Origin: Strigamia acuminata
Lineage: Eukaryota
Direction: 5' to 3'
NCBI GenBank assembly: GCA_949358305.1
Contig: OX442314.1
Coordinates: forward strand, 23,064,001 to 23,128,000
Length of the DNA: 64,000 nt
Shown: positions 36,201 through 58,115 of the stretch, one piece after another
How the letters are laid out: each line of letters begins with the position of its first letter
Position numbering within the stretch: the stretch's first letter is position 1
Notes under the pieces: model-generated
Seen by the model: only the letters and a program-made list of their open reading frames with translations
Told to the model about the DNA's origin: nothing
The model's database searches: none
Position numbers and translations under genes: made by a program

Positions 36201-39200
36201 ATGGTAAGAATAGTGCGAATTATAAGTCTCTAACTTCTTTTGGTGTTGTATTTAATTATAAAAAAAGCATTCCTGATTTGCGATTTACATGAGAACCGTA
36301 TTTACTTTACTATTCATTGTATCGTTGAATTGTGGAGACCATAATAAATACATATCAAATAAATATCAAATACAGAACGGAACTATTTTTACTTTTAGAT
36401 TCGTATGTCAGCATTGAATGAGAGTGATTCAAATGATTCCGATTATTCGTCGCAACCAGAATTAGTAACTCGAGAGGCGCAGGTAATAAAATAAAAATAA
36501 CAATAACAACGTGAATTAATGCAATGCGTTAATTCTATTGCAGGAAGATGAAGCGTTTTCTTTATACAACAAGGCTTTGCAGCTGCAAAACGAAAGCGAT
36601 CATGAAAAGGCAGAAGAACTTTACCAGCAGTTACTACAAACGAAATTTGTGGCTGATGCGATTCATTCTGACGAAAACACTGGCTTACTTCGACCCAATT
36701 TGCAGCTCAAATATTCAACTTATAAAAATCTTGCCAGTATTGCAATTCAACGGCAAGATAATGTCAAAGCCATGGAATCGTTTTTAAGTGCAGTTGCTTT
36801 GGATGCATCTGATGTGGTCGTCTGGTACAAAATTGGAACTACTGCAATGAAAATTCATAATTATCCTTTATCGAGATTAGCATTCCAAGAGGTTCTTTTT
36901 TTTTTTTTACTTTTTTAATTAATTAATTTTTTCATTTAAAATTTATTTTTTTAGGGTCTAAAATTAAATCCTAATCATTGGCCATGCTTAGACAACTTAA
37001 TCACACTGTTGTACGCATTGAATGATTATGCAAGTATGTTTTATCACTTATTTATTTTATTTTTCAATATTTAATTTAGAAAATTTAATTTTTTTTCTCT
37101 TTATAATTATCTTTTACAGCTTGTTTATATTTTATTGCTCAAGCGTTTGAAAAGGAGCCTTATTATACAAAAGGTTTAGCCATTAGGGATCAGATTTTTC
37201 GCGAGCAGCCATCACTACGCAGGGATTCTGGAGATTTATTTAAAAAATGGTATAAAAATAATGCGTAAAGTGAAATTTATATTTAAAATTTTTTAATTTA
37301 GTGATGAAATAATCTACAAAATCAGCTACGACAAGGAAGAAGCAGCTAAAGTAATATTGTTCATAATAATATTCAATTTTTTAAATTTTTTTTAAAATTT
37401 TTTCAGTTTATCGAGGAATCACTGGAGATGAGAAGAGTTAAAAGAGAATTGAGTACAGTACCTGAGATACCACCTTTGTCGTTCACTAAACCATTGACAT
37501 CGTTTACGTAAATTACAAATTAACGGTTGATTATACAAAAAAATTGATTTGTTTTAACATTATTCAGTTGGAAATGCTTGGGAAATCGTTTGGTTGCTCT
37601 TTACAATCATGTCTGGGACGCTGCACCTAGACTAGTAAGTAATTAACTACTAATTAATTAATTTTAATTTAATTTTTTATTATTTTTAGTCGTTCGGTTG
37701 CACGGTCGACACGAGTAAATGTATAACAGAATCTCAAGATCCGTTGGAAAACATTTGCGTGGAGTCTGCGCCCGGGCCTGCTTTGGCGATAAAAGATCAA
37801 GGAGTTGTTTCTAGTGATTCGTCCACCGTTAATGTTCCTTTAGTGGACGTGTCCACTCTTTCAGGTTTGAATTCTTATTATTTTTTTGGATTTTTTATTG
37901 AAATGGACGTATTTTTGTTTCAGATGTTACGCCAAGTACGATGGAAGTTGATGAGGTGTTAATTCAACTCCCGGCCGAACAATCTACTACTCCTTTTGGC
38001 GACGTTATTATGAATGATATATCCAGACGGATGCCTAAAAGAAAGCGAATTTTGATGGAATTTGGAGATTCGTTAAGTAAACGGCGCTCTGCAAGGGTAT
38101 GGAAAGCGGGGATTTTAATTTTTAATGATTTATGGTGTTGTTCTAATGGTGTTTGTTTTAAGGTGAGAAATACTGGCGTTTCTAAGAAACAGGATGTTAA
38201 TTACTGCCAAATATTGCACAAATTTTTACCAAAAAGTTTAAAGTAAGAAAAGTTAAAATTTAAAAAGGTAATCATTAATTATTTTGTGTTTGTTTGAAGT
38301 AAAGAAAATACAGCGGAACCGAAAAACTTAATTCCTTTGTCACTGAATGTGGATAAATTGTCGGAAGGTGGGAAATTATTTATAAAAACAAAATATTTTA
38401 AACTAATTAATTGAGATTTTTTTTAGAAAGCAAACAAGTGTCAGCCAGCAGCTTATTAAGCACAAATGAAGATGATGATGTGAAAAAATTCTTACAAGTT
38501 AATGACGGCTCTACTGTTTTGGATATTATGTACAATTACTTAGTAGCTTTAGGAGAAAAGCATCGAATGACTTGGTACACGAATATCGAATTTATTATTG
38601 TTTACGGTATTTTTAATAGTATTATTTGTTTATCACGCTAGGCAAGCCGGGTTAATTGATGAATTTATAACAATTTATAGTAGGATTAGGCGCCATCTTT
38701 CAAAACCAGATGTCATATGGTAAAAAATTCAAGTTTTTTTTTTTTCTAAAAAAACATTTTTTTAATTTAAATTTTTTTTACAGTCAAGAATTAAAAAGCG
38801 AAACCATTAAATTAGATGCGGTGGTAATTAATTTTTTGTTTTTATTTTCTTATAAAATTGATACAATTTTACTTTATTTATTGGTTGATAGTTTACGCTG
38901 ACATTCAGCGAATTAAAACTGGATAGCTGGCATATCGCACGCTTAAAATCGACTGCTCATTCACCTTTGTGTTGGAAGTAAGCGATCCATTTAATTTTCA
39001 AACTTATTATTTTAAAATTATATTTTTTCAGCAATCCCCTCGTTGCGAAGCTTATTCCCGATTTTCCAGGAAAATATTTTCGAGAAGATTTGGAATTTCT
39101 TGTTCAGTTGACCGTACGAAGAGATATTTTGGGAGATGATTGGTTGGATTATTTCATGAGGGGTATTAGACATTTTTTTTAACTTTAAAACATGTAATAT

Positions 39201-42200
39201 TTATTTTATTTATTTTATTTATTTTATTTATCTTATTTACGTTAGTTATGTGGCTGAGAGCCCGATTTCTGTCCATGCAAGGACAAATGGAATTTGCTAT
39301 CGATTCATTTGATAGGGTGAGGAATGTTTTATTACGGAATGTTTTTAATTTTTTAAAACTTTTTAAATTCTAGATAACATCTTGCATTCAAAACGGTGAA
39401 ATTAAATGTCCCGAGAAGGATTTTAAAGTCGTAATTCCAAATTGTCAAGTTGAAAACGTTATTACGTTAGGTACGTGTCAATATTTCGGTTAAGTGCTTC
39501 AAATAAGTATCGTCATAATAATTTGTAGATCAAATTCAAACCCAATTGGACACCTTACAGCGCTGTCAATCGTTGGAAGAGGTCAACTGCTTATTCGAAG
39601 CCAAGGAATATCAACAAGTTGTGGAGTTGTTGACGGCCACTTTCAATCAAGCTCAGTCTAAAAAAGTAATAATAAAAATCCTGAAAGTTTTTTCGTTAAT
39701 ATTTGTTTTTTTCTCGACAGATTTCAAATAAAAACATCCCCGAACGACGCATACAGCTCGAATTGCTACAGGAATCTGTTTGGCATTTAGAAAACATGCA
39801 AGAATGTTTACGTTGGAGCGAATTAGCTTTTAACGAATCCATTCAACAATATTTGACATTGACTGAACGGCAGCAGAAGAGTAATTGGATCCTTACGATA
39901 TCGAAATTGCTGACTGGATTAGAGAAGTAAAATTATTTAATATTACAACGCCCGATTATAATTTGTTATTTTGAATTTTATTTTATTTTATTTTTTGCAG
40001 ATGCATTAGGAAAGATATATCTTGTTTGGAAAAATTGGAGCAGGAATGTTTAGTCCGCTTTGCGCACAATCTCATTCAAATTATTTCTATTCAAATGGAA
40101 TTTCCAGACAGCAACTCGACTTTTGATAGCGTTTACCCATGGATTTTGCTACATAAAATTATTGATATGTAAATAATTGAGTCGCCATGATAATTTTTGC
40201 AATTTAAACATTTATTTTTACAGGGAAGAAAAAAAGGAAAGTAAAGATGCTTATCTTCCAGGGGTGCCAGCTTCTCTTATGTTATTATACAACGCGCACG
40301 AGTTTCTGGGACGGTAATTTTAATCGATATTTAGGGTAAATTCAGTGTTTCATGACAATATTTATTGCAGACGATCGTGGTGTTGCAATTCAGATGGTTC
40401 TCTGTTGTTGGAATACTCCGAAATGTTGGCAAAGGTGCTGGAGGAGTGCACCACCGAGAGTCCCCATCCGTACAAAGAAGATTTAGAACTCAGTTTAGAA
40501 CAGTGTTATTACTGCCTTTACGGCCATCCTCAGAAAAAGAGCAAAGCGAAACATTTGCACGAACATAACGCGGCATCGGTGCGTTAAAATGAAAAATTGA
40601 TAAGTACGGTATCAAATTTGATGTTTTTTTGTTTTGTTTTCAGATTTCTTTAACCATCGACAGATCCATACCGATCTTTAATTACTTCAAACCCAAACCT
40701 TTACCGGAATTTGATAGTCACAAGGCTAATACCGTTTCGGCCGAATTTGAAAATTTGCTCAGAAGAATTAAGAGTTTAATTCCTTCTCAGGAAAGCGATG
40801 GTAGAATTTCTAAAATGAAAATATTACACACGTTTAATATCTTTGCGTTTATTTAGCGAGCATGCTTGCGAACGTGAATGCGTACATCGATGCAACTTCG
40901 GATGAATTTCCCAATATTCCAAAAGATGATCCCAAGAGAATGTATTTCAATTTTTTTTGTCATATTATATTAATTTATTATAATTAATTTTTTATTTATT
41001 GCTTTAGACCGTTGGTCGACGAGCTGTACTACCTTTTGGCCGATTACTATTTCAAAACCAAAGAATTCAGTAAAGCGATACGTTATTACGTAACGGATAT
41101 TAGTTTTAATCCGCAGAGGCTGGATTCGTGGGCCGGTATGGCTCTCGCACGTAGCAGTCAGTTAGAACAACTAATTCACTCGGTCGGTTCTGCGGAAGAG
41201 GATAAATCGAAAAAAAAGGTGAATACAATTAACGAGCTGCTTTCGTATTGTAATTAATTATTTTTATTTTTTTAGGGCAGCAATTATTTGCATCGGAAAG
41301 CTACCTGCACTTTACGATGTTTTCGTGGTGCGGTTACAATTAATCGACACAACACTACGTTGTGGATCGAATATGGATCGGTTTCTTATATGCTTCACTC
41401 CCACGTTTCCCGGCAACTTAAACAAGTATTAAAAGAAGAAATTAATTTGTATTTGTTTGTTTACTTATTGCTTTGTTTTAATAGAAAGAACAACTCAAAC
41501 TTACGCCAGAAACGGTAGAATCGTGGACTAAAAAAAGGAAAGATTTATTATTAACGGCCGAAGAATGCTTTAGATCAGCAAACGAATGCGATTCTAATAC
41601 TTTGGACGAAGAGGAGTGGCTTCATAATTACATGTTGGGAAAAATTGTTGAGAAACAGGGGAAAAATTTGGAAATTTGTTTGAAACATTATTCATTGGCT
41701 GCCGCACTCCTGCACGAGAAAGGTGCTCGCTATCCGAGAAAAATACAATATCATAATCCACCGGATTTATCCATGGAAGCTTTAGAAGTTAGCAAATATT
41801 TAAATTTTCATAAAATTTAAAAAAAATTAAGTAAATTAAAAAATTATTTAAGGTTTTCTATCGAACGCACGCCGCCACTTTAAAATATTTATTGATCCAC
41901 GAGGAAGAGAAATTGGACGTGGAATTTTGCCGCACCGTTCACGGCTACTTGAAGGAAGCCGCGGCGAGTCCGTTCGCTCGTTTCCAGGAGAAAAGGTATT
42001 GCAGAGATTCTAACAATGATGAGACTAATATGCACTTGTTAATGCCTTGCAGTTAATTTGTGAAACTGATTGTGATGAATAAGTGTGTGTGTTGTTTATT
42101 CGTGATTGGTCGTGTGTATATGGATGCAAAACCAAGGTGGTGGAAGCTAAAGTGGGCTGACAAATGGGTTTAATTTTAAACGCTGCGCACCCTGCTTTAC

Positions 42201-45141
42201 TCAGTTTATTTTATTATTAGCCTAATTACTAATAAAATGAAAGTACGAGTGAAAATATTTTGCCACTGTATATTGCAGTAGGTATTCAGCTTCTTTGAGT
42301 TCCTCTGAAATTGAGGATCTTTCGCCCATGTCACTTCTACACCCTGGTGAGCACTCCTCCAAACCCAAATCGAAATTGGGACGCCTCAAATTTGAGCATG
42401 ATTACTTCAGAAGGAAGAGGAAGGATTCGTCCACGACTGATGACTTTGAGATTGAAGCGAGGAAAAATTCGATTGATTCCTCTTCTGAATCATTGGTAAC
42501 GTGTGCAATGTTTTTTTTTTGTTTTTTTTTTTAATTTTACTTTAATTTTATTAATCAATTTATTTATTTATTTTAAGGATTCGGCAACGGTTAAAGATGT
42601 TGTGACAAATATTGTGTCAGTTGTGTCGGAAAAATATCCGGACGAAATGCAAAGTCAGCCGCTTATTATTGTTTTGGGCGATTCAAAAATTAAGAAAATG
42701 AATCTTATTGGCAAAAGTAGGTTTTTGTTTACTTAAATCATTATGAAAATCTAATTAATGTGTTTTTTTTTTAGGTGATGATACGAATAAACAAATGATT
42801 TTAGCTGAATCGATGACTCAAGACAGCGAAGTTGAAACGTTAGCGGTGAAAGAATCGAACACGAGTTCTAACAGTTCTAATAGACAGGATAAAATGGAGG
42901 ATTCTAGTGGTAAATTTAATTTATGAGGATAAAAAAAAAACTTGTTTTTTTTATTTTTTTTAAATTGTTTTTTAGGTCGACAAGAAAAGAAAACGATTGA
43001 ATTAGCGACGGAAAGTCAAAATGAAATCAAAGATGAGCAAATACCGGATCAAACTGTTTTGCTTAAAATGTGTCTGGATGCTTTGCGACAATGTTTGCAG
43101 CGCTTTCCGCAACATTATAAATCTCTCTACAGACTCGCATATTTTCATAGCAGGTCGAAATTCAACAAGGTTAATTAATTAATTGATATTTTAATGTTCG
43201 ATTGAATCGCTTCAATACTTGATTTATTTTTTTTAATTTTTAGCAATTACAATGGAGTCGAGATTTTCTCTTAGGCCGAAGCATTCCTTGGCAGCAATTG
43301 AGTTACATGCCGAGTCAGGGGTTGTTTAATGAAAGGAAAAATTCAAATTTGTTTAATGTAAGATAACGAGAAAGAAAACCAGACGTGGTTCTATAATTGC
43401 GCTTTATTTGCAGGGAATTTGGCGAATTCCAAACGACGAAATCGATAGACCGGGCAGTTTTTGCTCCCACATGTATCGCTCTGTAAAACTTCTTGGAGAA
43501 GTTTTGCTGCAGTTGAAAGATTTTTTCGTTCTCGCAAATTTGCTCACGCAACTCTATCGTACTCCAGAAGCGGGAAAGTGCGTATAAATGATTACATAAC
43601 GTATGATTTGCATAGTTGATTCAAATTCTTTATTTCTAGGAAGTTTCTGCGCGACAATGACCGATTAATCGTCGCCAACCTGATTCAAGGTCTAACAATG
43701 GATGCACTTATGGAAGAAATGAATCGCTGGTGTGGTGTTCCGTCTAAATTTCGAGAAAACGAAGACAAAGCCGTTAAACATGTGCTTTTAGTGTCCAAGA
43801 TTTGGCATATTTTGATCAAAGTTTCTGAAAAATGCAGCGAGGTGAATAAGTTGTTCGAAGATGTTTTTCGCATTTACATAAAATGTGTGGAGGTAAATAA
43901 AAATTCGAATATTTCTGCCATTTAAATTCTATTACTACAATCAATTTTCATTGAAATAGATCCCTGAAACGTCCAATCTGCTAGATCAGGCTTTAAAATT
44001 TTGCCAACAACAACAAAGCATGTCCCGAGCCATGAAAATGTCAACGATGGTCCAGATGGATTTGCTGCGAAACTCTCAATCCCTTTTACTAACCGGTGGA
44101 TTAGAAATGGAAAAGAAAATTAAATCGATTCCAGAGTACACGAAACTGACGCCTCATTCGGAAACAACGAGAATCGATTACGTCCACAACAAATCACAAT
44201 TCGAAACGACTCGGATCGATTACATTCACAAATCGCAGATGGAAATGCCCAACAAAGAGAAACCGAATTTGCCGACGAGCAAAAGCGTCTCGACAACCGC
44301 AGAAAACGTGTCCAAAAAAGGCGTTTGGGTGTCCAACGCGATCCCCGTCGAAGGCGTCGTTATTGGTTCGATGACCATTACTCCGGTTGGCGCAAACTCG
44401 CCGTCACCCGAAGGATTAATGAGTCGTTTACCGTCCAGTACAAAATCGCCGCGCGGGCCGCTCAATTTATCCACTACGAATCCGGCAAGACCGGCCACGG
44501 CGACACCGAGCAGCAACATAACTAGAAATCCTCCTCCGTCGACATCGAGTGCCAAGTTTGCGCCTTCGTTCGATCCCAGTCGATTGACCGCCGACGTGCA
44601 ATCGAAAATTACGTCGCTGGACCCGGTCGAACATGCAAAGACGACAAAGGCGTTGTCGGGTTATCAGATGGAGTTTTTGAAGCAAATCAGCCAAACGCAG
44701 ACTGTGCCGACGTCGTTCAAGCCGCGGGGAAGGGGAACGGGGAAAATTGCTTTTCAACCTCAGACGTGGGGATCGCGAACTTCCGCCGTCGTTTCGTCGG
44801 CTAATAAGTCAACGTTGGATCTGTCAGTTAAAAACGAACCGGTGGAAATGACGTCTTCCAGTTTGACGAATTTTCCGACCGATTTGTCGGTTTCGGCGTC
44901 GAGTGAACCGGAATCGACGCCGCCTAAGCCTTCGTCGTTGAGATCTATTAGGATTTCGACTCAGGAACCTGCAAAGAGAATTGTAGGGCCTCTGAATTTG
45001 AAATCTACGTCCAACTTTGTTGGGTTGTGTACGAAAGTGTCTCCGCCAACTGTCACGGCGCCCGTTGTTACTACCCCGTTTGAAGTTATTGACATTTCTT
45101 CTAGTTCTAGCTCAGAACCAGAAGGAAGGCAAAATGAATGA
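36201..45141 (+). CDS. CABIN1: Calcineurin-binding protein Cabin1 (TPR subunit of the HIRA complex), many short introns
   Basis: ATG|gt at 36201 joins [101 protein letters not shown] and [14 protein letters not shown] all match recalled vertebrate CABIN1 blocks. Low-complexity last exon to 45141. Confidence 0.95.
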
Positions 45142-45959: not shown

Positions 45960-46128
45960 CACGTTCAGCTTATATTTGAACACTCATGAAGACTCTTTGT
46001 AGGAGGCGCCTAGCATACTTCTCTGCCCGGCACACCTCTTCTCCTGGCATACTTCGGTTGTTCTTAGCAACTTAACCTAACCTAACAATGGCATACATTG
46101 GGGCAGATGTACAGAACAACCCATACTT

Positions 46129-46213
46129 CTCTGCCCGGCACCCCTCTCTGTCCGGCACTCTTCTCTGCTCGGCACCCTTCTCTGCCCGGCGCCCCTCTCT
46201 GCCCGGCGCCGCT
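46129..46213 (+). repeat. 17-bp minisatellite (ctctgcccggcrcccct), left 5 units; target of the gypsy insertion
   Basis: Five in-register 17-mers ending exactly at the TSD. Confidence 0.92.
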
Positions 46214-46844
46214 TGTCGTGATTCGGCTTTGTGGTTAAAGATAATAAATAATACACTCGGGAATACAATATATTTCAAATACTGCTTTATTAAAACACGC
46301 TTACTAATACAAATATAAGTCAAGATGTTTCCTGTGTTGGTCCTCGGATTCGGCTGCGAATACGAGTTGCCGCTAAACAATGGCGGATCCAATTGTTTAG
46401 TCCTACGCGTGGTCTATGTTTGTTGTCTAGGGTATTTCCACGTGTTATTATGAACACGCGAGAATTCGCTTTCTCGTGCGAATTAAACGAATATCGTTCG
46501 AATATTTATTCTAGCGTAGATTGGCTACGCTAAATAAATGTGGCTGTTGTACAGTTGAAATGGTCAGCGGGCACCGGTCCTCGATCAATCCGTGAAACGG
46601 CCTGAAAGGTGAGGTAAATGGTGCTCTTGCTGAAATGTGGTAACTGTAGTGTCGTTTCCGGTCAAGCATTGGCTATATATATTAACCGGAAATGACGTCA
46701 TATGCAAATCCTTCTGATTATGCAGGTTCGCAGAAACACGCGACTAGTCAGTCTAGTCGGTATTTCTAGCGCGCTCTAGTGGCGAGTATTAGTAACACAA
46801 TAATCACCGCTAATTACTTCTTCAGGTGATGCTGAATCACCACA
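46214..46844 (-). repeat. 3' LTR (631 bp)
   Basis: Identical by eye to 57345-57975 except one G/A difference (46226 vs 57357). Confidence 0.97.
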
Positions 46845-46855
46845 CGTCCCTCCCC
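46845..46855 (-). promoter_or_regulatory. Polypurine tract
   Basis: Minus strand GGGGAGGGACG immediately before the 3' LTR TGTGG. Confidence 0.85.
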
Positions 46856-47038
46856 GAGAATAAATCATCGGGGCCCCCCCTTTAAATAAAGGTGGAGCAG
46901 TATCTTTAATCATAAATAATCTTTTTATTAAATAATGATGAATGATGAACAAAATATTTTACATTCTTGAAATTGATACATAAATAATTTCAGGTTTTTT
47001 TAGAGAAGACAGTCTTCTCGTTATGAATATGTAATTAA

Positions 47039-50000
47039 TTATTTCTTCAAGTTATCGGCGTAACTTGGCTTATCTTCCGAACTTGGTTCGTCCAGGTTGG
47101 GAGATGTGGTCAATTTTGAAGAGTAGTCCGAGGGGTCTTCGCTCTCGTTCAAGTAGAAACGTAAGTGACCTGGTGCTTCCAGCGGATTCCCCGTTCGTTC
47201 GTGGGCCCAAATTGGCGGCAAAAAGGGCGACATTCCCTGATTGGTGTGATGGATTCTTTGGGCCTCGGCAATGCTGGTTGGCGCGCGATGGGCTCGGAGT
47301 AGTCGTTGATGCTGGATGAAGCGATCGCCTCCGGCTCCAGCTTCGATAGCGTTCTTCATCCAGACATAAAGAGAATAGCCACGGTCTGGGGTTTGGAGTA
47401 ATTTTGTTTCAGTATCCTTCGTCAAGGACAACCCCGGGAAGTACATCCGGAGTCTGGCGGCGATCTGAGGTTCGGCCGTCTTTGAAGCTTTCATGCTCGA
47501 TTTTGGGCGGAGCAATTTTCCTTTTGTTTCCTTCTTTTTGAGCGAGACTGGTTCGGCCAGTGGTTCGGAAGGTCTATTTTCCTTCGGCGGAGGCGGAGGA
47601 GGAGGCGTCGGATCCCTGGGAGCCGGAGTTTCCACGACGGGTGTGGTCACTGAAGACGACGGGCGTGGGTGTTGGATGATCGCTCGAACGTTCTGATAGG
47701 AGGTCTCTGGATCCGGGTCCTGGGCCACCATTTGGGCTCGAATTACTGCCGCAGAGGGCACTAGGCGGGTCCAGCTGTCTACGAGAGCCGGCGGGACTTG
47801 GAAACCCTCGTGGGCCACCACGATCCAGGCTGCCACAGCAACACGTGCGTTTCGGAAGGTGGCGGCGGCCAGCAAAATCGACATCAAGTCGGTAATGGCA
47901 ACCACGATCCTCGTATTCCAATTTGGATGATCCCGATTTTTGTTCTGCGTATATTCAATCGAGATCCGCTGAAGGTTCGTGATGACGTTTTGGATCACGT
48001 TTTGTTGGTAGGAGTCCATCTCGCACAAAAGCGCTCTAGCTTGCTCCACGGTCGTTACCTCCAGAAACTGTTGCAACGTTACCTCCGAAGGGTTGATTGG
48101 AGTCGAGGCTTGGATGACTGCTGGGGCTGGCAACATCGGATTGGGTCCCGTGGATGTCGTTGGCTGAGGCACAGATCTGACCAGACGTCTTGATTTTTCC
48201 GGTTCGGGCTTGTCCCAAACGATTGGAGTTCTCGTTGAAGTTGAGGCTTCGGGGATAGTTGGGAGAGGTTCGACTTTGGCCGGTCCAAAGCGAGCTTCTC
48301 GATGTCTGAGTTGTTCTTCAGAACTCAGTGTCGGTGCGCCGATTATCACTTTCTTGCGAAAGGCGCTTGGGAGGCTGACGCTGGATGTTACGCTTCTCGT
48401 CTGCGAGAGTTCCGGCTTGATGAAAGCACTTGGCGCCGTCTCTAGACTCGAGGCGGTCGAGGGAGTCGGGCGGTAGACTGGTTTCGGCTGCATTTGTTGG
48501 TATTGCATAACTACCGCGAGGAGGTCCGCCTGAGTATACATCTTCTTTTGCTCGGGGACCTCGTCGATAATTACCTCATCGTCGATCTTCATTGGTTCGG
48601 GACTGTCCCGAATTGATCGTGTATCTTCGCAGCGCCTCCTATCTCGCTGTCGAATTTCTTCTTCACGATACGCTTTCCATGAACGTGCGCGACTCTCCGA
48701 TCCTCTCCTTCTTCGTTCGTCTTGTAGACGGAGGTTCTCTCGTTCACGTCGGGCTCTTTCATCACGTTCGCGCAGGAACTCCTCTCGGTGTCTATTCCAG
48801 GATTCCTTGTTTTCTTCCCGCCGTCGGAAGTAATTTCTACGATAATCGTCCCAATTTTCTTGGTTCCTATCGCGTCGGCGTTGATCTTCTCGGCGGTCGG
48901 GGCGTTCGCGTACATTTTCTCTTCTTCGGCTGGTTGACGGGGCATCCCTGGATTGAAATCGCGATGTTTGTGGGATCTCCGTCTTTCCCAGGCGAGAGAG
49001 AGCGCTTGGTTTGGCCAGGCGTTTCTCTGTCGCGGGTTTCTTATTCTGCGCGCTGCTGGAAGTGCTTGGCTTGTCCAGGCATGGTTTCTTCGCTGAGCAG
49101 CCTGCTTCGTCGTGCTCGTTGGAGAGACGTTTCTCGGCCTTCTGGCGTTTGCGACCAAAGAAGCCCAAAAAATGCAATTGATGCATTGCTCGTTGCGAGG
49201 TGATGAAACCGTGTCTCGGTCTCCAATCTGGGCGGTCGGGCCGGTCTTCGCGGATCTGAAGGAGCCAAAACCTGATTTCCTCGGTCGAGTAACCGTCCGG
49301 CTGTAGATAATTGAAAACCTCGTCATGTGCGGTCCGCCTTACTTCTTCGTAATATGCCATATGAATCTGGTGTTTTTCTTCATCTGTTTCGGCGTCGCGC
49401 CATTGTTCGTAAACGTCCCATCCTCGCTGGTCGTCAGGAAAGGCGGCTCGGATTAGTGGATTCGGGATTGGCGCTGGCGGGTCCATATTTCTCGAGATAA
49501 CTGCCCGTAAAGCTGCTTGATATTGGCGCGGCATGTAGTGGATCAACGTTTGCTGGCTGGACCAGTAGCGGCTGATCGCACGGGACAATAAAAGGCGAAT
49601 TTTCCATGGTTCAAAGTCGACCGCTTCTTCGAGCGCTTGTCGGAACAGTATGGGGATTACTTCGCGCCATAAGCTGCCTGCGGAAACTCTTTTCGGGTCG
49701 ATTTGCCCCCACGTAGTGCGATATCCGTCCTAAATATTAGAATATTAATAAATATATTAGGATCGTTGATTAATTTGTCATATTTTTGTAGAGATTCTTT
49801 CGTCTAACACAAGATGGCGTCATGGTCGGCCATGTGCTTTTCGACCACGTGTCTTGAAGTTAATTTTTCTTTCGGTATTTGATTAATTTTGATAATTTGT
49901 CACTTAAAGTTAAATTATTTCTTCGTTTGTGGTCAGTCCACGAACTTATTTCGTATTTTTGATTATCGATAATTGAATTTTTTCTATTTTTTACTTACGT

Positions 50001-50148
50001 CGGGTTGGACATCGGGTTCATTGGGTTCGTCCCAATTTCCCTCTTCGTTGTTTACAATGATTTGTAACAAATCCACTTGATCTTCATCGTCATCCTCGGA
50101 AGCGTTGTTTACGGCCCGTTCAATTTCTTTCTTCCAATCATTTCTCAT
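47039..50148 (-). CDS. Retrotransposon ORF3, two exons (50148-49999, 49729-47039), ~946 aa, unknown function, not env-like
   Basis: The 849-aa track ORF is open for 47 more codons upstream, to a ctaat...tttAG acceptor. A 50-codon ATG exon (MRNDWKKEIERAVNNASEDDDEDQVDLLQII...DVQPD) ends at a GTAAGT donor. Both junctions are phase 0. Confidence 0.85.
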
Positions 50149-50326
50149 TTTTCGGAAACTAATTTGATTTCACGGCTGTCTCGAGGTGATCGTTGCTTAG
50201 TCGGAGATGACAGTGATAAGTGTGGGTCGGGTTAGAGGTTAACTATTAGTCTCATGTCATCTTTGATTGGTTTGGCCAATTAAGACGCATTGTGGGACGT
50301 AACAGGTGTCCCCCCTGTGGTTGTTT

Positions 50327-53300
50327 TTATCGATTGTTTGAGACAATGGCCGGAGTCGCTTTTTGTTTTCCGACGAGTTTCCCGTCTTTTATGAACGGGT
50401 TTGGCTTGTGTCGGCGCATACCGTATATTTTATCAGGTTTGGGGATTCCTGTAGTCTTCTTTTTGTTTGATTGCTTTCCTTTTTTAGGAGATTCTGCGAC
50501 TATTTCCTCCCTCCCCGAAATCTCATCCGGGGCGTCGGCCACTTCGAGTAACTCATCTTGAACTAAATTGGTTGGGCCAGTTTGTTCATCTAAAAACATG
50601 TCGCGAATAATTGGATTTTTCGCTGGTTTCGTCTGATATTCCGTCCAAGCCTCTTGAGGAAACTCAGGTAAGTATGGAGTTAATTCTCGGGCGTGGATCG
50701 ATCTAAAATTAACGTTATCTGCCAATCTTTTTAGCTTGAAAGCGTTTCCGCCGTGGGCTTCGAGTATGACGTACGGGCCGTCGCGTTTGTCTGCTAAGCC
50801 TGCGTGGATCCCCTTATCGGCGCTGGACTGAATATGTGTGTCTTTCCAGACGAGGTCATTGACTTTAAAATTGCAGAAGGGCCGATCCTTTCCAGCAATG
50901 CTAATACGATCTCTCATGTCGAATATGTGTGACATCATGTGCTGATAAGTGGCCGAAATTATTTGCTCCAGTCTGTCGACATAAATATGAGGCTTCTCAG
51001 GATCAATTTCCAGTATTTCCTCCGGTATTCGTGGGTCCCAGGGTACTCTGAGTTCCCGAGCGAAGTTTAGAAACGCGGGAGAAAATTTGCGGTTCCTTGA
51101 GATCGTTGTGCGGATGCTGAAGGCAATTTCACGAAGATATTCGTCCCAGCTGGAGTGAACATCGGTGAAAATTGCTAGTGCATATTTTATATCGCGATTT
51201 AACCTTTCGACGGGATTGGCCCGTGGATTATAGGTTGATGTATATGATGTCTCGATGTCGAATTTTTTACAGAAGTCTTTATACAAATTTGACGCGAATT
51301 GTGGTCCATTATCGGAGATTAATTTTCGAGGGAATCCAAAATGAAGCGCCACTTCGTACAAACATCGAATGATTTTTTGCTTAGTTGGTCTCTCCATTGG
51401 AAAGAGTTCGGGCCATCCAGTCGCGACATCCATGATTACTAATATATATTTGTTTTTATTGGATGACGTGGGTTTTGGGCCCATTAAATCCACGCTCCAG
51501 CAATCGAAGGGTGCGAAAGGGCCAAGTGAGATTCTCTCGTAGTTCTTGGGCGTCCTCGGCTTGCACGCTTGGCATCTGGGGCAGTGATGAATAAAACGAA
51601 CAATATCTCGGGTCATTTTTGGCCAGAAATAAAGTTGATTTGCTCGGTAGATCGTTCTGGCCACTCCAGAATGTCCGGCGAGCGGGTGTCCGTGGACCAT
51701 CCACAGAAACCTTGTCAGCAGACTCCTGGGTATAACGACTTTCATCGAAGTTCCTGTCTCCGTCAGATCATCGCGGAAATTCGGGTGGTGTTTTAGTAGA
51801 AGTCCATCCTCGATTAAGTACGTGGAGGCTTCTCTTTCGAATTCTTCACGTTGGATTTCGTCGAAATTCTCGTCGGGAAATATTTTATCTGTGATGAAGT
51901 CTCGATAAGTTTTACAGAAGTCGTCTGCCATCTGGGCGGCTATTAATTCGTCCCTGGTGGGCGGTTTGCTATTCGTCCCCTTGCTTACGTGGGCGACGAA
52001 TGCTCGAACGTACTTGTCGGAGATTCGAGGTTCTATTGTTAGCTCATAATTTGGGTGAGCGTCCTTGACCGACTGGTACGCTCGGAGCCAATAACTGTAA
52101 TAATTCTGGTCTCCTGACTCGAGTTTCTCCTTGGGTAATTCGTTTAGCTTTTTAAATTCCCATTTTCGGACGGGGTTCGGACAGTAGAAGAGGCGTGAGT
52201 CGTCCTCTCCGCAGTCGGTCTCGTCTTCGGGGTCTGAAGCTGGGGCTCGTGAGAGGGCGTCTGCCACGACGTTGAATTTTCCGGGTCGGTATTCAATGAT
52301 TAAGTCACAAGCCATTAATTCTAGCTGCCAGCGAGCCATTCTTCCGGACGGTTCCTTCAACGCCATTAACCACTTTAGTGCTTCGTGGTCAGTTTGTACG
52401 TTGAACTTGGTAAATTCCAGGTATGGTCTGAATTTTCGGATTGCCCAGACGACGGCTAGACATTCTAACTCTGTCGCATTATAATTCTTTTCGGCTGCTT
52501 GTAATTTCCGGCTGATGAACATCGTCGGGACCTCTAACACTACTCCGTCGATGTCATGCTTTTGAAGCAACGCAGCACCTAGGCCAATTCGACTGGCGTC
52601 GGTGTGAAGAGTGAATTCTCGATTAAGATCTGGTAGGGGAATTCGTTTTACATCGATCAGCATTTGTTTTATTTTGTTAAACGATGTTTCGCAGTGGTCA
52701 GTCCACTCGAAATCTTCATCGTTGCGTAACAGATCTGTGATGGGCGCCGCGACGTCTGCCAAATTTGGGAGCAATCGATTGAAGAAATTCACCATGCCCA
52801 TGAAACGTTGGACTCCTTTTACATCTTCCGGGGCGGGGAACTGGCTAATCGCCTGGGTCTTTTTCGGGTCGATGGATAGGCCACCTGTTCCGACTGTGTA
52901 ACCCAGGAATGCCAATTCTTTGCGGCAAAATTTACTTTTCCCTGGATGAATGTTTAGACCGGCTTTTGTGAGTCGCTCCATGACGTCATTCACGTGTATC
53001 AGGTGATCTTCAAAAGTTTGGGAGACTATGACTATATCATCGAGGTAAGCCCATGCGTATTTGTGTAAGGCATCGCCGAGAACTTTTTCTATTAGTTTTT
53101 GAAAGGTGGCGGGTGCGTTTACTAACCCGAAGGGCATTACATTAAACATCAGTCGACCCTGTGGTGCCCAAAAAGCTGTTTTCTCTTTATCCTCTTCCCG
53201 CAATTCAACCTGCCAGTAACCCTTGGACAAGTCCATGGTCGTGACCCAGTTAAATGGGGCGAGCTCCCGTAGAATCGCTTCTATTGACGGCATTTGGATG

Positions 53301-54439
53301 GGGTCGATGACGGTTATGGCGTTTAAAGGTCTATAATCGATGCAGAGGCGCGGTTCGGAGCCTGGTCGCATGACGAGGACAATCCTCATTCCATATTCTC
53401 CGATGGCGTGCGACACGATCCCTTTTTCGAGTAACTCGTTGCACATCGTTCTTACGATATGTCTCTTTTGGGGATTCATAGTTTTAAAAGGTACTCGCAC
53501 CGGTTTTCCCGTAACCAATTCGATCTCGTGCATTACGTAACTAGTCTTTCCTGGATCTTTATTTAAGTTCTTCGAGTGCTTCTTGAGCATTTCCTCGAGG
53601 AGTTTCGTTTGTTCTTCTCCAAGATTGGCGTCCATGGCCAGATTATGTATTAAATTCTCCTCTTGGAGGATAGTATTAAACGACTTAAAATTATAGTCTT
53701 GGATGAACTTCTTAATTTCGCCTCCTCCCCATTCCTCGTCGTCCTTAGCTTTGTCTAGGAGTTCCGGAGGTATTATGGGTAGTCGTGGGTCCTCGTGGTT
53801 GTCGATGTAATTCCACGAACGTGTGACTGGGTTGGGCTGGATGTTCATCCGTTCCATCAAATCCATTCCTATCAGCAGGATTGTGTCTCGGGTTGGTAAC
53901 ACGATGAAGAAATGCTTAATCGTGCCTCCTTCCCATACAAAATCGGTTGATAACGTCCCCACTGCTCTAACTTCTCCCGCTGCTGTAAGAACTCGAATAT
54001 TCTCGTTCATTCCCCGTAATTTTTTCTGTATTTTTTCTTCGAGTGATTCGAATAAGTCGGTGGAGATAAACGACTGATCCGCTCCCGAGTCGAGTAGTCC
54101 CATTAACACCTTTTTGCCGAAAGAGACTGGTATTTTAGCCAGTACGCTCTTCGCTTCTGTTGATAGGTTGCAACGAAGTATTCGCTTTTTAAGAGGATTG
54201 GCCCCTTGGTCAAGCGGCAAAGTCATGAAAGCGTTGGCTATACCGTCTTCGTCTCTAATTTCGAATTTCCGTTTTTTGGTTGGAGTTGTGACTTCCTCGT
54301 TGGCAGCTTCCTCGAAGAATTCCAACAATTTTTTCATTTCTTTAATTTGTTTTTCCACCAGTGTAAGGTCCATCGTTTTCGAAGTTATCGCGAGCGGATG
54401 TGGAATCACTTTTGTTCCGCCCGCGAGTTCCAGTTTTTT
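50327..54439 (-). CDS. pol: Pol polyprotein (protease, RT, RNase H, integrase), expressed as a -1 frameshift fusion with Gag
   Basis: LLDSGAD protease; RLCIDYR, MPFGL and YLDD RT; HTDAS, ELE, TDH and NVVADALSR RNase H; H-H-C-C zinc finger, SVDLMG, SDNG, VERLN and GPY integrase, in gypsy order. Confidence 0.97.
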   Translation of the reverse strand, partial: KKLELAGGTKVIPHPLAITSKTMDLTLVEKQIKEMKKLLEFFEEAANEEVTTPTKKRKFEIRDEDGIANAFMTLPLDQGANPLKKRILRCNLSTEAKSVLAKIPVSFGKKVLMGLLDSGADQSFISTDLFESLEEKIQKKLRGMNENIRVLTAAGEVRAVGTLSTDFVWEGGTIKHFFIVLPTRDTILLIGMDLMERMNIQPNPVTRSWNYIDNHEDPRLPIIPPELLDKAKDDEEWGGGEIKKFIQDYNFKSFNTILQEENLIHNLAMDANLGEEQTKLLEEMLKKHSKNLNKDPGKTSYVMHEIELVTGKPVRVPFKTMNPQKRHIVRTMCNELLEKGIVSHAIGEYGMRIVLVMRPGSEPRLCIDYRPLNAITVIDPIQMPSIEAILRELAPFNWVTTMDLSKGYWQVELREEDKEKTAFWAPQGRLMFNVMPFGLVNAPATFQKLIEKVLGDALHKYAWAYLDDIVIVSQTFEDHLIHVNDVMERLTKAGLNIHPGKSKFCRKELAFLGYTVGTGGLSIDPKKTQAISQFPAPEDVKGVQRFMGMVNFFNRLLPNLADVAAPITDLLRNDEDFEWTDHCETSFNKIKQMLIDVKRIPLPDLNREFTLHTDASRIGLGAALLQKHDIDGVVLEVPTMFISRKLQAAEKNYNATELECLAVVWAIRKFRPYLEFTKFNVQTDHEALKWLMALKEPSGRMARWQLELMACDLIIEYRPGKFNVVADALSRAPASDPEDETDCGEDDSRLFYCPNPVRKWEFKKLNELPKEKLESGDQNYYSYWLRAYQSVKDAHPNYELTIEPRISDKYVRAFVAHVSKGTNSKPPTRDELIAAQMADDFCKTYRDFITDKIFPDENFDEIQREEFEREASTYLIEDGLLLKHHPNFRDDLTETGTSMKVVIPRSLLTRFLWMVHGHPLAGHSGVARTIYRANQLYFWPKMTRDIVRFIHHCPRCQACKPRTPKNYERISLGPFAPFDCWSVDLMGPKPTSSNKNKYILVIMDVATGWPELFPMERPTKQKIIRCLYEVALHFGFPRKLISDNGPQFASNLYKDFCKKFDIETSYTSTYNPRANPVERLNRDIKYALAIFTDVHSSWDEYLREIAFSIRTTISRNRKFSPAFLNFARELRVPWDPRIPEEILEIDPEKPHIYVDRLEQIISATYQHMMSHIFDMRDRISIAGKDRPFCNFKVNDLVWKDTHIQSSADKGIHAGLADKRDGPYVILEAHGGNAFKLKRLADNVNFRSIHARELTPYLPEFPQEAWTEYQTKPAKNPIIRDMFLDEQTGPTNLVQDELLEVADAPDEISGREEIVAESPKKGKQSNKKKTTGIPKPDKIYGMRRHKPNPFIKDGKLVGKQKATPAIVSNNR
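54388..54439 (-). promoter_or_regulatory. -1 programmed ribosomal frameshift signal
   Basis: A-AAA-AAC in the gag frame (54439-54433), a 6-nt spacer, then an 11-bp stem UCGCGGGCGGA / UCCGCUCGCGA. The -1 frame is the pol frame. Confidence 0.88.
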
Positions 54440-57252
54440 GTCATACTGTCGAATTTGGCGGTGAGTTCCTTCAAGATTTTTTCTTGTTCCTTCGCGAGCA
54501 ATTTCACTAGCTCCTCACGCTCTGCGGCCTTGTCGTCGGCTTTTTTCTTTGCCAGTTTTGGGCAGGCCTGACGCCAGTGGCCGTCTTCGTTACAGAAATT
54601 ACAAGGGCTTTTCTTCTTTCCCTCCCGCTCAAAAGGTTTTTTGGGGTAGTCCTTCTTCTCGGAAGTCGCCTCTGTTTTCGGGTTGTGGTGTTCCGATTTT
54701 CTGGACTTCATCTGAGGTCGGTAGCTGGGCGCCAGTTCCTTCCCCATGTTTGCGTGTACCACATCGTTGATACCTTCGTCAGCCTCATCGCTTTCCGAGA
54801 ATTGCTCAGAGTCTTCGCTTACTTCGTCTTCCGACTTTTCCTCGGCGGCGTTAGTTTGCGTGCGATAGGCCTTATTCGGAGGTGGTAAAGGGTTAGAAGC
54901 TTGTTGGTTTTTCTTTGAGGGGAGTGGCTCTATACTTCCGTTTAGATAATTTCGCGATTGGAGCAGCTTAGTGGAGTCTATGCTGCGCTCCTGTATTCGT
55001 TGCTGTCGGGCCACTCCTAGAGCTCGCTCTTCTTTTGTCAGATTTTCGTTATACCGAGCATTTACTTCGGTGTGTTTCTTCTCGACGAAAGCTAGGATGG
55101 CTTTGAAATTATCCCCTTTAGGAGCGTTCATTTCTCGTAGGACTTTGGTTGCGGTTTCGTTTAGTCCTTGTTCGAAGAGAGCTTTCTGAGCGTGTTGGTC
55201 AAATGGTTTGTCCATTTCACGGAACAGGCTGTCGGCTCGTTGTACGTATTCCCTCAGAGTTTCCCCGGGAGCTTGCTTCATAGAGCTTACTCTTTTCTGG
55301 ATTTCTTGGCTCGTCTCGCCATATTGATTGTGGAACTTTATGACGAAATCTTCCCAGTTTCGGGGTTGGACATCAGCGTACCAGTTTCGGGCCCGGTTGA
55401 TCAGCATTTCTGGTATTCCGCGTGCAACCATTTCGTCGGGTTCCGCTCCTAAGCGATTAATCGTCAGGGCGACTTCGTCCAAAAACAAGTTGCCGGCGTT
55501 CCAGGATCCGTCGAACTTAATTAGTCTCAGGGTCGTCCACTTGATGTTGTTATCCTTGCGAGAATACAGCCATCGGTCTGCGGAGTAACGTTTCAACAAT
55601 CCTTCGCTTCGATCGTCCTCCTCGGTCTCTTGGCCACGGCTTTGTTGAAGTTTTTGGTCCATGGCCTGAAGGAGTTCGTCTTTCATCGTCCGTAGTTGGT
55701 TGCTTAGCGAGTCAGTCTCACTAAGCAGCGGTGATGATCGTGGATTGTCGGAAGGGAGGCTTGGGTAATGCGTACCGTTGCCCGTCAGTCCGAACTGATT
55801 GTGTTGGAACGACGTTTTCCCTGATGATCCCGCGGTGTTCGGGTTATTCGTGAGGTCTTGCGCTATGGTTGAGTTATCTGGGTTCGCTTTCTCTGGAGCG
55901 GAGGTTTGGCTCAACTTTGTTCCGGGCGGTATCAGATCGTCCAGTCGGGTCCCCGTGAGGCCTTCGTTCGTTTTTTTGATAAAAACGTAGGAATCTCTCC
56001 CAGCATACGCTTCGGCGGCGTGTTTCTTTTCGAGGTGATTTTTAACTGCGTTAATCTCCTCGAGCGTCGGCATGGCCAGTTTATTTTGACCTACTTCGTT
56101 GCGTATTTGATTCTTCTGATTTATACATCTGATTAGCTCTGCGTTAGGGTCGCCTGGGTTGTTATTACTGGTTTGGCCAGTTTTCATTGCGAATGAGTTT
56201 TTTACTGCCCATGATTGTGCGCCCTGATTATTCCTCCTATCCTGTATAAACGCCTCGTACAGTTCTCCTTTGACTTCGTCCGATTCGTTCAAGATGCTAT
56301 CTAGTCCGTTGACTCGGATACTGCCGTGAGATGCTTGAGAGTCGATACTTTCGCTGTCTGACGTTGCTTCGCCGCCTGTCTCGGACTGTTGTCGATCTGC
56401 TCCGACCCGACGTCGTTTCTCTCCGCGTCTGGCCGTGTTATCTGCCGATCGTTTTTCAGTCCTCTGATTTACTAGGTCGATTACTCGGCTTAGCTCTGCG
56501 TAGGGATCCTTGTCCTGGTCGATCTCGATGCCGTGTGCGCAAGCTACCCGAGTTACTTCTATTGCTTTGGCTACCAGCTCCTTAGCTGTGTGAGACCGTT
56601 CTGGGGAGCTCTGTACGGAGTTTGGCTCCGAATGCTGGCTTAACCCGTTGCTTGGCGGCCGGATCTGGCAGTCCTTTGCCATTTCTCGTTCGATTATTTT
56701 CTGCTTCGCGAGCAATTCTCGAGCCAGCTCGCGCTCCAGTGCCATTTGTTTAGCTTGGTGTTCTTGTGCCAAGCTCTGTTCCATGGCAGCTAATTTCTCG
56801 CGATGCTCTCTGGCTAAATCTTCCATCAATTCGTTTTTCTTCTTCTCTAACGCGACTGTTCTTGCTTGGTCTGCGCGGGCAGCCTCGTTGATAATTGCGG
56901 CACTTGTGTTTGCCGCTTTATTTAGAAGAGTCATTAGATCCATTTCACTGGGATCCTTTTCGACTGGTCTTGGGCTTTTCAATCCGAATCGAGGGTTTTC
57001 GAACGATTTATTTAGTCCGTTTTCTTCGTGAGAGCTTCCTGATCCTTCGAATTCGCCTCCCGTAAACGGAAGTTGTCTTGCAAGGGGAAGGCTTTCACTT
57101 GATGATTCCGTTGAAACTTTAGTCGAGTTAGTCTCGACTTCTGGTTCCACGTGGTTCGCTTCTTCCGCTTTTTGGCGTTCGATTTCTTCGGCTTCTTTTC
57201 TATCCTTTTCGTCGTTACGCCTTTTTCTATCTTCTGCGGTAGTTTTTGTCAT
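54406..57252 (-). CDS. gag: Gag (948 aa): long N-terminal extension, capsid domain and one CCHC zinc knuckle
   Basis: RARNWY..WEDFVIKFHNQY..MKQAPGETLREYVQR capsid-like block; CNFCNEDGHWRQAC. Confidence 0.93.
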   Translation of the reverse strand: MTKTTAEDRKRRNDEKDRKEAEEIERQKAEEANHVEPEVETNSTKVSTESSSESLPLARQLPFTGGEFEGSGSSHEENGLNKSFENPRFGLKSPRPVEKDPSEMDLMTLLNKAANTSAAIINEAARADQARTVALEKKKNELMEDLAREHREKLAAMEQSLAQEHQAKQMALERELARELLAKQKIIEREMAKDCQIRPPSNGLSQHSEPNSVQSSPERSHTAKELVAKAIEVTRVACAHGIEIDQDKDPYAELSRVIDLVNQRTEKRSADNTARRGEKRRRVGADRQQSETGGEATSDSESIDSQASHGSIRVNGLDSILNESDEVKGELYEAFIQDRRNNQGAQSWAVKNSFAMKTGQTSNNNPGDPNAELIRCINQKNQIRNEVGQNKLAMPTLEEINAVKNHLEKKHAAEAYAGRDSYVFIKKTNEGLTGTRLDDLIPPGTKLSQTSAPEKANPDNSTIAQDLTNNPNTAGSSGKTSFQHNQFGLTGNGTHYPSLPSDNPRSSPLLSETDSLSNQLRTMKDELLQAMDQKLQQSRGQETEEDDRSEGLLKRYSADRWLYSRKDNNIKWTTLRLIKFDGSWNAGNLFLDEVALTINRLGAEPDEMVARGIPEMLINRARNWYADVQPRNWEDFVIKFHNQYGETSQEIQKRVSSMKQAPGETLREYVQRADSLFREMDKPFDQHAQKALFEQGLNETATKVLREMNAPKGDNFKAILAFVEKKHTEVNARYNENLTKEERALGVARQQRIQERSIDSTKLLQSRNYLNGSIEPLPSKKNQQASNPLPPPNKAYRTQTNAAEEKSEDEVSEDSEQFSESDEADEGINDVVHANMGKELAPSYRPQMKSRKSEHHNPKTEATSEKKDYPKKPFEREGKKKSPCNFCNEDGHWRQACPKLAKKKADDKAAEREELVKLLAKEQEKILKELTAKFDSMTKNWNSRAEQK

Positions 57253-57324
57253 TTCTTACGATATAATGATCGATCGAAAGATCCCGGTTATTATTTAAAG
57301 TATTGTCTTAAGGTTAGCAAATCT

Positions 57325-57342
57325 ATCCCGGACAGGCCCCCA
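57325..57342 (-). promoter_or_regulatory. Primer binding site, tRNA-Pro type
   Basis: TGGGGGCCTGTCCGGGAT, 2 nt after the 5' LTR; 16/18 match to the known tRNA-Pro PBS TGGGGGCTCGTCCGGGAT. Confidence 0.85.
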
Positions 57343-57344
57343 CG

Positions 57345-57975
57345 TGTCGTGATTCGACTTTGTGGTTAAAGATAATAAATAATACACTCGGGAATACAAT
57401 ATATTTCAAATACTGCTTTATTAAAACACGCTTACTAATACAAATATAAGTCAAGATGTTTCCTGTGTTGGTCCTCGGATTCGGCTGCGAATACGAGTTG
57501 CCGCTAAACAATGGCGGATCCAATTGTTTAGTCCTACGCGTGGTCTATGTTTGTTGTCTAGGGTATTTCCACGTGTTATTATGAACACGCGAGAATTCGC
57601 TTTCTCGTGCGAATTAAACGAATATCGTTCGAATATTTATTCTAGCGTAGATTGGCTACGCTAAATAAATGTGGCTGTTGTACAGTTGAAATGGTCAGCG
57701 GGCACCGGTCCTCGATCAATCCGTGAAACGGCCTGAAAGGTGAGGTAAATGGTGCTCTTGCTGAAATGTGGTAACTGTAGTGTCGTTTCCGGTCAAGCAT
57801 TGGCTATATATATTAACCGGAAATGACGTCATATGCAAATCCTTCTGATTATGCAGGTTCGCAGAAACACGCGACTAGTCAGTCTAGTCGGTATTTCTAG
57901 CGCGCTCTAGTGGCGAGTATTAGTAACACAATAATCACCGCTAATTACTTCTTCAGGTGATGCTGAATCACCACA
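57345..57975 (-). repeat. 5' LTR (631 bp) with promoter motifs
   Basis: Octamer ATGCAAAT, CRE TGACGTCA, ETS-like CCGGAAA and TATATATA cluster at ~57805-57840. AATAAA on the minus strand at ~57417-57422. Confidence 0.97.
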
Positions 57976-57979
57976 CGCT

Positions 57980-58115
57980 CTCCGTCTGGCGTTCCTCTTC
58001 GTCTGGCGTTCCTCTCTGCCTGGCACCCCTCTCTGCCCAGCGCCATTCTCTGCTTGGTGTCCCTCTCCGCCTGGCATTCCTCTCTGCCCAGCGCCCCTCT
58101 CTGCCCGGCGCCCCT
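57980..58115 (+). repeat. 17-bp minisatellite, right 8 units
   Basis: Continues the 46129-46213 array in register once the element and one TSD are removed. Confidence 0.92.

Follow-up and report, generated by a model that had tools for sequence, protein, structure and literature searches.

The window, a stretch of 64,000 nucleotides from Strigamia acuminata, contains an LTR retrotransposon of the Ty3/gypsy type (46214-57975, minus strand), which is intact and young and whose gag and pol frames are both open (Table 1). The hallmarks of Ty3/gypsy elements are present: direct LTRs, a target site duplication (TSD), a primer-binding site and a polypurine tract, with gag placed before protease, reverse transcriptase (RT), RNase H and integrase. 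The two LTRs of 631 bp each begin with TG, end with CA and differ at a single base (1/631); the primer-binding site is presumably tRNA-Pro-like. With its 948 codons gag is long, and the approximately 600 residues N-terminal to the capsid-like domain match no known family. The pol frame is shifted by -1 relative to gag and overlaps the gag end. Ty3 Gag-Pol is the best match of pol in the PDB (E 9e-103), and in a protein search with relatives in the hundreds the closest full-length match is 40% identical. A quick pol tree, which comprises the window and 43 of the 120 listed hits and from which named references are absent, places the element on a long branch with the nearest protein 46% identical. 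Judged by these sequences, the element family is isolated among Ty3/gypsy pol proteins.

Table 1. Features of the Ty3/gypsy element, in order of their position in the window.
Feature	Position	Strand	Remarks
TSD, left copy (4 bp)	46210..46213		Identical to 57976-57979
3' LTR (631 bp)	46214..46844	-	TG...CA; series of hairpins; one mismatch to the 5' LTR
Polypurine tract	46845..46855	-	Purine run adjoining the 3' LTR
ORF3, main exon	47039..49729	-	896 codons from stop to stop; first ATG only at codon 66
Predicted helical domain of ORF3 (aa 545-690)	47660..48097	-	Holds aa 607-625; AF2 on the single sequence, pLDDT 48
SARNP DIM/UCM-like motif (aa 469-482)	48284..48325	-	SSEEQLRHREARFG; in a Pro/Ser/Thr-rich linker
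Arg/Glu/Asp mixed-charge tract (aa 268-373)	48611..48928	-	Predicted single long helix
Candidate monopartite NLS (aa 192-201)	49127..49156	-	GRKRQKAEKR; pattern match
Predicted GT-AG intron of ORF3	49730..49998	-	269 nt, phase 0, 28% GC; from sequence
Predicted first coding exon of ORF3	49999..50148	-	ATG-led, 50 codons; acidic (17 D/E, 4 R/K)
pol	50327..54514	-	Protease, RT, RNase H, integrase (Pfam)
gag	54406..57252	-	Retrotrans_gag, Pfam PF03732 (E 5e-10); CCHC knuckle PF13696 (weak)
Candidate leader splice donor	57254..57259	-	GTAAGA, just before the gag ATG; from sequence
Primer-binding site	57325..57342	-	Position from sequence
5' LTR (631 bp)	57345..57975	-	TATA-like and AATAAA signals
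TSD, right copy	57976..57979		

The element is covered end to end by thousands of contigs of graded likeness, some of them less than 90% alike, which implies a family of many copies and diverged subfamilies; these contigs belong to two contig runs of one study, which are possibly the source of the window itself and not independent of it. The insertion site is a 17-bp GC-rich minisatellite (46128-46207 and 57978-58115), and contigs that join both flanks of the element indicate that empty or related sites exist. Hairpins and palindromes are unusually frequent in both LTRs, where most windows of the scan give z -3 to -5.8, and far less so in the coding regions. Compared to shuffled sequences, RNA folding of the LTR reaches z -5.8 at 46270-46650 and z -4.5 at 46650-46880; a search against Rfam gave no match. 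Directly after the pol stop, a G-rich purine run (50315-50295, minus strand) followed by TGTTAC resembles a junction of polypurine tract and LTR, and CCAAT-like boxes come after it. This run may be what is left of an ancestral 3' end that predates the gain of ORF3, or part of an internal promoter.

The surrounding genome is intron-rich and contains menorin, CDP-alcohol transferase and TPR genes. Two plus-strand genes (24998-26202 and 33869-35250) are tandem duplicates with a CDP-alcohol phosphatidyltransferase domain, which we take to resemble insect ceramide phosphoethanolamine synthase. The multi-exon TPR gene (36520-45141, plus strand), which resembles Cabin1, ends about 1 kb from the 3' LTR, in an orientation opposite to that of the element.

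ORF3 and its predicted intron

The third gene of the element, ORF3, occupies the position of env, and its main frame lacks its own start codon. The coding character of this frame is evident from variation among copies: at 48120-48560, 24 of 40 variants (the best-supported 40 of 51) are silent in the ORF3 frame, compared to an expectation of 25-31% (binomial p 2e-6 to 1.3e-4), and 8, 5, 9, 9 and 20 of the same variants are silent in the five other frames, the frame with 20 being the antisense frame that has its third positions in common with ORF3. A second variant listing has 11 variants in ORF3, of which 9 are silent, and 19 in pol, of which likewise 9 are silent. Since only the best-supported rows were kept and one apparent stop is seen in one contig only, next to other changes, the silent fraction is to be read as an estimate. 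On the evidence of these variants, ORF3 is a real protein-coding gene under purifying selection.

Relatives of ORF3 were found neither in a set of 5.8 billion proteins (lengths of 476-1516 aa, or 30-491 aa for aa 460-850 as query) nor in metagenome contigs or viral contigs, and aa 540-700 and 1-200 have none in the ESM Atlas. The protein has no sequence match in the PDB, no Pfam match and no exact look-up match, and tblastn against all 83 of 83 pol-related loci gave none. In particular, Pfam identified no recognised RNA-binding or DNA-binding domain, no ICP27 domain, and none of the known anti-silencing domains such as a nuclease or methylase. An envelope gene was considered and rejected: ORF3 matches no env or fusogen family, has only 4 Cys and 1 sequon, and its start does not resemble a signal peptide; the predicted N-terminus is acidic. 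The most hydrophobic stretch (aa 607-625, Kyte-Doolittle 1.84) lies in mid-protein and may be a membrane helix. It is part of a predicted helical domain, for which Foldseek returned no match at E<=0.001. Single-sequence AF2 folds of ORF3 are of low confidence except for the charged helix described below, and a polyproline run is located at aa 709-713.

The start codon missing from the main frame may be supplied by an upstream exon (Table 1). After codon 50 of an ATG-led frame that starts at 50148, the element carries GTAAGT, the only one in 11,762 sense-strand bases, and the TTTAG that would end the intron at 49730 contains the stop by which ORF3 is delimited. Both splice sites are in phase 0. 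The acceptor is preceded by a branch-like CTAAT and by 65 nt free of AG, and it ranks first among 282 YAG sites for T-richness, branch-like motif and AG-free zone, with a score that is ad hoc and was devised with the site already seen. Shuffles of the gap region often give GTRAGT (18%) or a 50-codon ATG frame (17%); singly, each of these features is thus common, and the case for the intron follows from their coincidence. Where copies differ in the length of the exon, its frame is preserved: 3 letters are added at 50144, and 110 letters are replaced by 104 at 50009-50118, in a contig that has more gaps nearby. None of the 15 listed joints, out of 47 contig joints, skips exactly 49730-49998. From these features, ORF3 is probably completed by a 50-codon exon across a 269-nt intron, to give a product of about 946 residues. 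If the exon is joined in this way, the intron has to be retained in genomic RNA. This probable intron was absent from the first-pass annotation of the locus and is new here. The candidate donor in front of gag could give rise to a doubly spliced ORF3 message, the alternative being an internal promoter.

Charged tract, candidate nuclear localization signal and UAP56-type motif

The first-pass annotation likened ORF3 to a nuclear RNA regulator with two basic clusters, a mixed-charge tract typical of splicing and speckle proteins, and a motif of the type that binds UAP56. All motifs were found at their positions in the 896-codon frame (49729-47039, minus strand): beside the clusters in Table 1, AKKP is located at aa 213-216 (49093-49082), RRRENV...RRRDR at aa 268-288 (48928-48866), and ERDERARREREN at aa 321-332. 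Only the first basic cluster is a candidate nuclear localization signal, its KRQK (aa 194-197) fitting the monopartite core pattern, whereas AKKP fails this pattern and was rejected. No bipartite pattern was found in ORF3, and the loose pattern for nuclear export signals matches 10 times and is not specific.

The tract of about 100 Arg, Glu and Asp residues is borne out: it comprises 106 residues with 38 R, 19 E and 9 D, of which 64% are charged, at a net charge of +12. RD/RE repeats of the U1-70K type consist of alternating opposite charges, and such alternation was rejected for ORF3, as adjacent pairs of opposite charge number 21 in the tract compared to 21.1 in shuffles. Pairs of opposite charge at i,i+3 are in mild excess (29 vs 20.7 in shuffles; p 0.012, one spacing out of six). 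In the AlphaFold model, aa 279-373 are predicted as a single helix, with pLDDT ~90 at aa 281-340, and no other part of the model is confident. The DNA of the tract is 65% purine, and its Arg codons are CGN in 27 of 38 cases and not GA-rich. Arginine-rich mixed-charge domains (R-MCDs), which go to nuclear speckles, are defined by at least 20% Arg, a positive net charge and more than 40% charged residues (PMC12629991). With 36% Arg, the tract of ORF3 falls within this definition, like the speckle proteins LUC7L3, PRPF38B and PPIG (PMC12629991). However, it differs from the R-MCDs described there in having only 3 RS pairs, no excess of adjacent opposite charges, interspersed aromatic residues, a predicted continuous helix, and mostly CGN codons for Arg (PMC12629991). 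The tract may bind RNA or condensates, or may act as a rigid spacer.

The proposed UAP56-binding motif ends in REARFG and can be compared to the consensus as given in the papers on SARNP and Tho1. The DIM consensus is K1xxxR5xxR/K8F9G10, located at the end of a helix and present in 2-6 copies; R5 and F9 are invariant, K/R at position 1 is a preference only, and G10 is preferred (PMC10508174). The fuller UCM consensus is R/KxxxRAxRFG, and UCM-1 of SARNP binds UAP56 at about 10 uM (PMC12823420); the structure of the SARNP complex has been solved. ORF3 agrees with these at R477 (R5), R480 (R8), F481 (F9) and G482 (G10), but it departs from them with Q473 instead of K/R at position 1, with E478 instead of A at position 6, and with a single copy. 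Like the SARNP and Tho1 motifs, it lies at the end of a stretch with helix propensity, within a linker of low complexity, and in both Tho1 DIM-1 and ORF3 a His precedes R5; in contrast to these proteins, ORF3 has no SAP domain, and its motif is a predicted one (PMC10508174, PMC12823420).

Whether the match exceeds chance was approached by shuffling, in which R..RFG appears in 0.66% of 20,000 whole-protein and 1.1% of 20,000 local shuffles. Since the motif was picked post hoc, a rate of about 1% makes it uncommon and not striking. The only other RxxxF in ORF3 (aa 297-301) lacks R/K8 and G10. Among controls, none of 120 pol proteins contains RxxRFG, and 266 frames (143,486 aa, 89 loci) contain it 4 times, two instances being UAP56's own helicase motif and two lying in unrelated frames; a K variant, KKRRFG, is found in locus L040, in a downstream ORF that is unrelated. 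Within the linker (aa 415-545, 130 residues), the most helix-prone 12-mers coincide with the motif, which ranks 70 of 885 overall, and AF2 models it as coil with low confidence (pLDDT ~30). Among the best-supported 40 of 51 variants in the family, changes at R477 are all silent and R475 alternates with K. No listed variant falls in 48282-48298, for which the chance probability is 0.13-0.21 on the same 40 of 51. Taking these sequence comparisons together, we consider it rather improbable that the motif truly binds UAP56. A precedent for a single motif is pUL69 of HCMV, which binds UAP56 by one short arginine-rich motif and exports unspliced RNA (PMC11980605) and which has been aligned as a putative UCM (PMC12823420). 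pUL69 is, however, a herpesvirus protein of the ICP27 family (PMC11980605), whereas ORF3 has no ICP27 domain and carries a putative UAP56-binding motif.

As to UAP56 itself, eukaryotic genes for this helicase were found at the loci L086, L087, L088 and L089, on contigs that are labelled as parts of bacterial genomes, which probably reflects contamination; L089 is of the animal type. Two further candidates, L084 and L085, were rejected as UAP56 and are phage helicases.

Possible roles of ORF3

Third ORFs other than env are an already known kind of gene in retrotransposons. For the majority of additional ORFs located where env would be, no function is known, and the export of intron-containing genomic RNA is understood for few LTR retrotransposons (PMC10309623). 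For ORF3, we favor, with a probability of roughly 0.4, an accessory, non-env gene that would be expressed from spliced RNA and encode a nuclear protein aiding the export of intron-containing genomic RNA. With the 269-nt intron removed, the main frame would be extended by the acidic exon of 50 codons, and the product would have about 946 residues. The packaged RNA would be the unspliced one, because the intron still stands in the freshly inserted copy, and it would need a route past host surveillance; it is when unspliced RNA is copied that an element would depend on Rev-like helpers or RNA transport elements. KRQK would then mediate nuclear entry, and the arginine-rich helix would bind RNA or partition into speckle-like sites. 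In the last and weakest step, which we hold to be doubtful, the short helix ending in REARFG would dock on the RecA2 lobe of UAP56 in the fashion of SARNP.

A precedent for an export role is provided by CERV, encoded by the Ty3/gypsy element Cer1 of C. elegans (PMC10309623), and the probable intron lends indirect support to a Rev-like role of ORF3. CERV has 517 aa, exons in common with gag, a Cys loop and a G-protein-like domain, whereas ORF3 would have about 946 aa, an upstream exon of its own, a 106-aa R/E/D helix and RxxRFG; no UAP56 motif is described for CERV in the available text of that work (PMC10309623). Export function has been shown for CERV (PMC10309623) and is what we infer for ORF3, and the two are compared by description. 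A more specific version of the export reading appears unlikely to us: as a retrotransposon mimic of SARNP, the spliced protein would clamp UAP56 on intron-retaining RNA by its single motif, its arginine-rich helix would reach RNA or speckles, and feedback would set the ratio of spliced to genomic RNA, perhaps via the hairpin-rich LTR. The LTR hairpins could serve as a response element for ORF3, but palindromic promoter sites would give the same folding signal.

Such promoter sites are part of an alternative in which ORF3 acts as a transcriptional or chromatin trans-activator of its own LTR, likened to the LTR trans-activators Tas of foamy viruses and Tax of HTLV, and in which REARFG is incidental. 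Activation domains are acidic with interspersed W/L/I, and the predicted first exon, which is composed in this way, fits an activator equally well. The NLS-like KRQK core and the several predicted helical domains with a fold without match would also suit an activator, as would TGACGTCA and the other palindromic sites that precede the TATA-like box in the LTR. However, no DNA-binding domain was found with Pfam, and the 106-residue tract, of a kind characteristic of proteins of speckles and RNA processing (PMC12629991), would be left unaccounted for. We hold this role to be improbable.

About equally improbable is that ORF3 counters host silencing at the level of piRNA or chromatin, e.g., as a decoy for UAP56 or speckle factors instead of an export adaptor. 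In favor of this, the element belongs to a young family of many copies, some of them diverged, and the lack of detected relatives of ORF3, compared to hundreds for pol, is often seen in fast-evolving conflict genes. Moreover, UAP56 can retain unspliced RNA, so that blocking it could help the element (PMC10309623). Yet the variation near the motif is purifying and not diversifying, and the Pfam search revealed no known anti-silencing domain such as a nuclease or methylase.

Less likely again is a cytoplasmic or particle scaffold, possibly membrane-anchored and without a nuclear role. A tract that is predicted to be a single stable helix, with opposite charges paired at i,i+3 as in single-alpha-helix spacers, would be consistent with this, and proline-rich linkers (including the polyproline run) could be used for trafficking or cell-to-cell spread; the hydrophobic stretch and the env position point in the same direction. 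On the other hand, an Arg-dominated tract of positive net charge argues against a scaffold, as do the absence of a signal-peptide-like start and of env or fusogen matches, the 4 Cys and the single sequon. Finally, a neutral captured sequence, with motifs as by-products of purine-rich DNA, would agree with the 65% purine in the tract and with the failure to find homologues, but is very improbable and largely refuted by the open frame of 896 codons in this young element and by the strong silent excess (24/40, and 9/11 in the second listing).

Returning to export as the favored role, an ORF3 intron in a young and abundant family would make the element a clean system for regulated splicing and export. 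Searches of the open-access literature turned up no protein that combines an intron of its own with an arginine-rich helix and a motif like that of SARNP, nor a report of a retrotransposon that mimics the SARNP clamp. If the motif binds UAP56, the element would mimic this recently described clamp, a strategy suggested for pUL69; if the match is due to chance, ORF3 would still be an orphan accessory gene under selection.

Extra ORFs were also observed in other gypsy-like loci. Long non-env ORFs follow pol in L001 (7404-9176), L057 (2794-3495), L021 (1582-2742), L061 (7739-8530) and L077 (7871-8731), none of them similar to ORF3. The KKRRFG-containing ORF downstream in the pol-related locus L040 (3586-4674) resembles a Ulp1/SENP protease. 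In the pol-related locus L012 (5551-9927), an env-like ORF is followed by an ankyrin-repeat-like ORF and then by another ORF, as judged by eye. The post-pol ORFs of L061, L077 and L079 likewise look alike by eye, and those of L061 and L077 contain a Cys-rich motif of the RRLCDC type.
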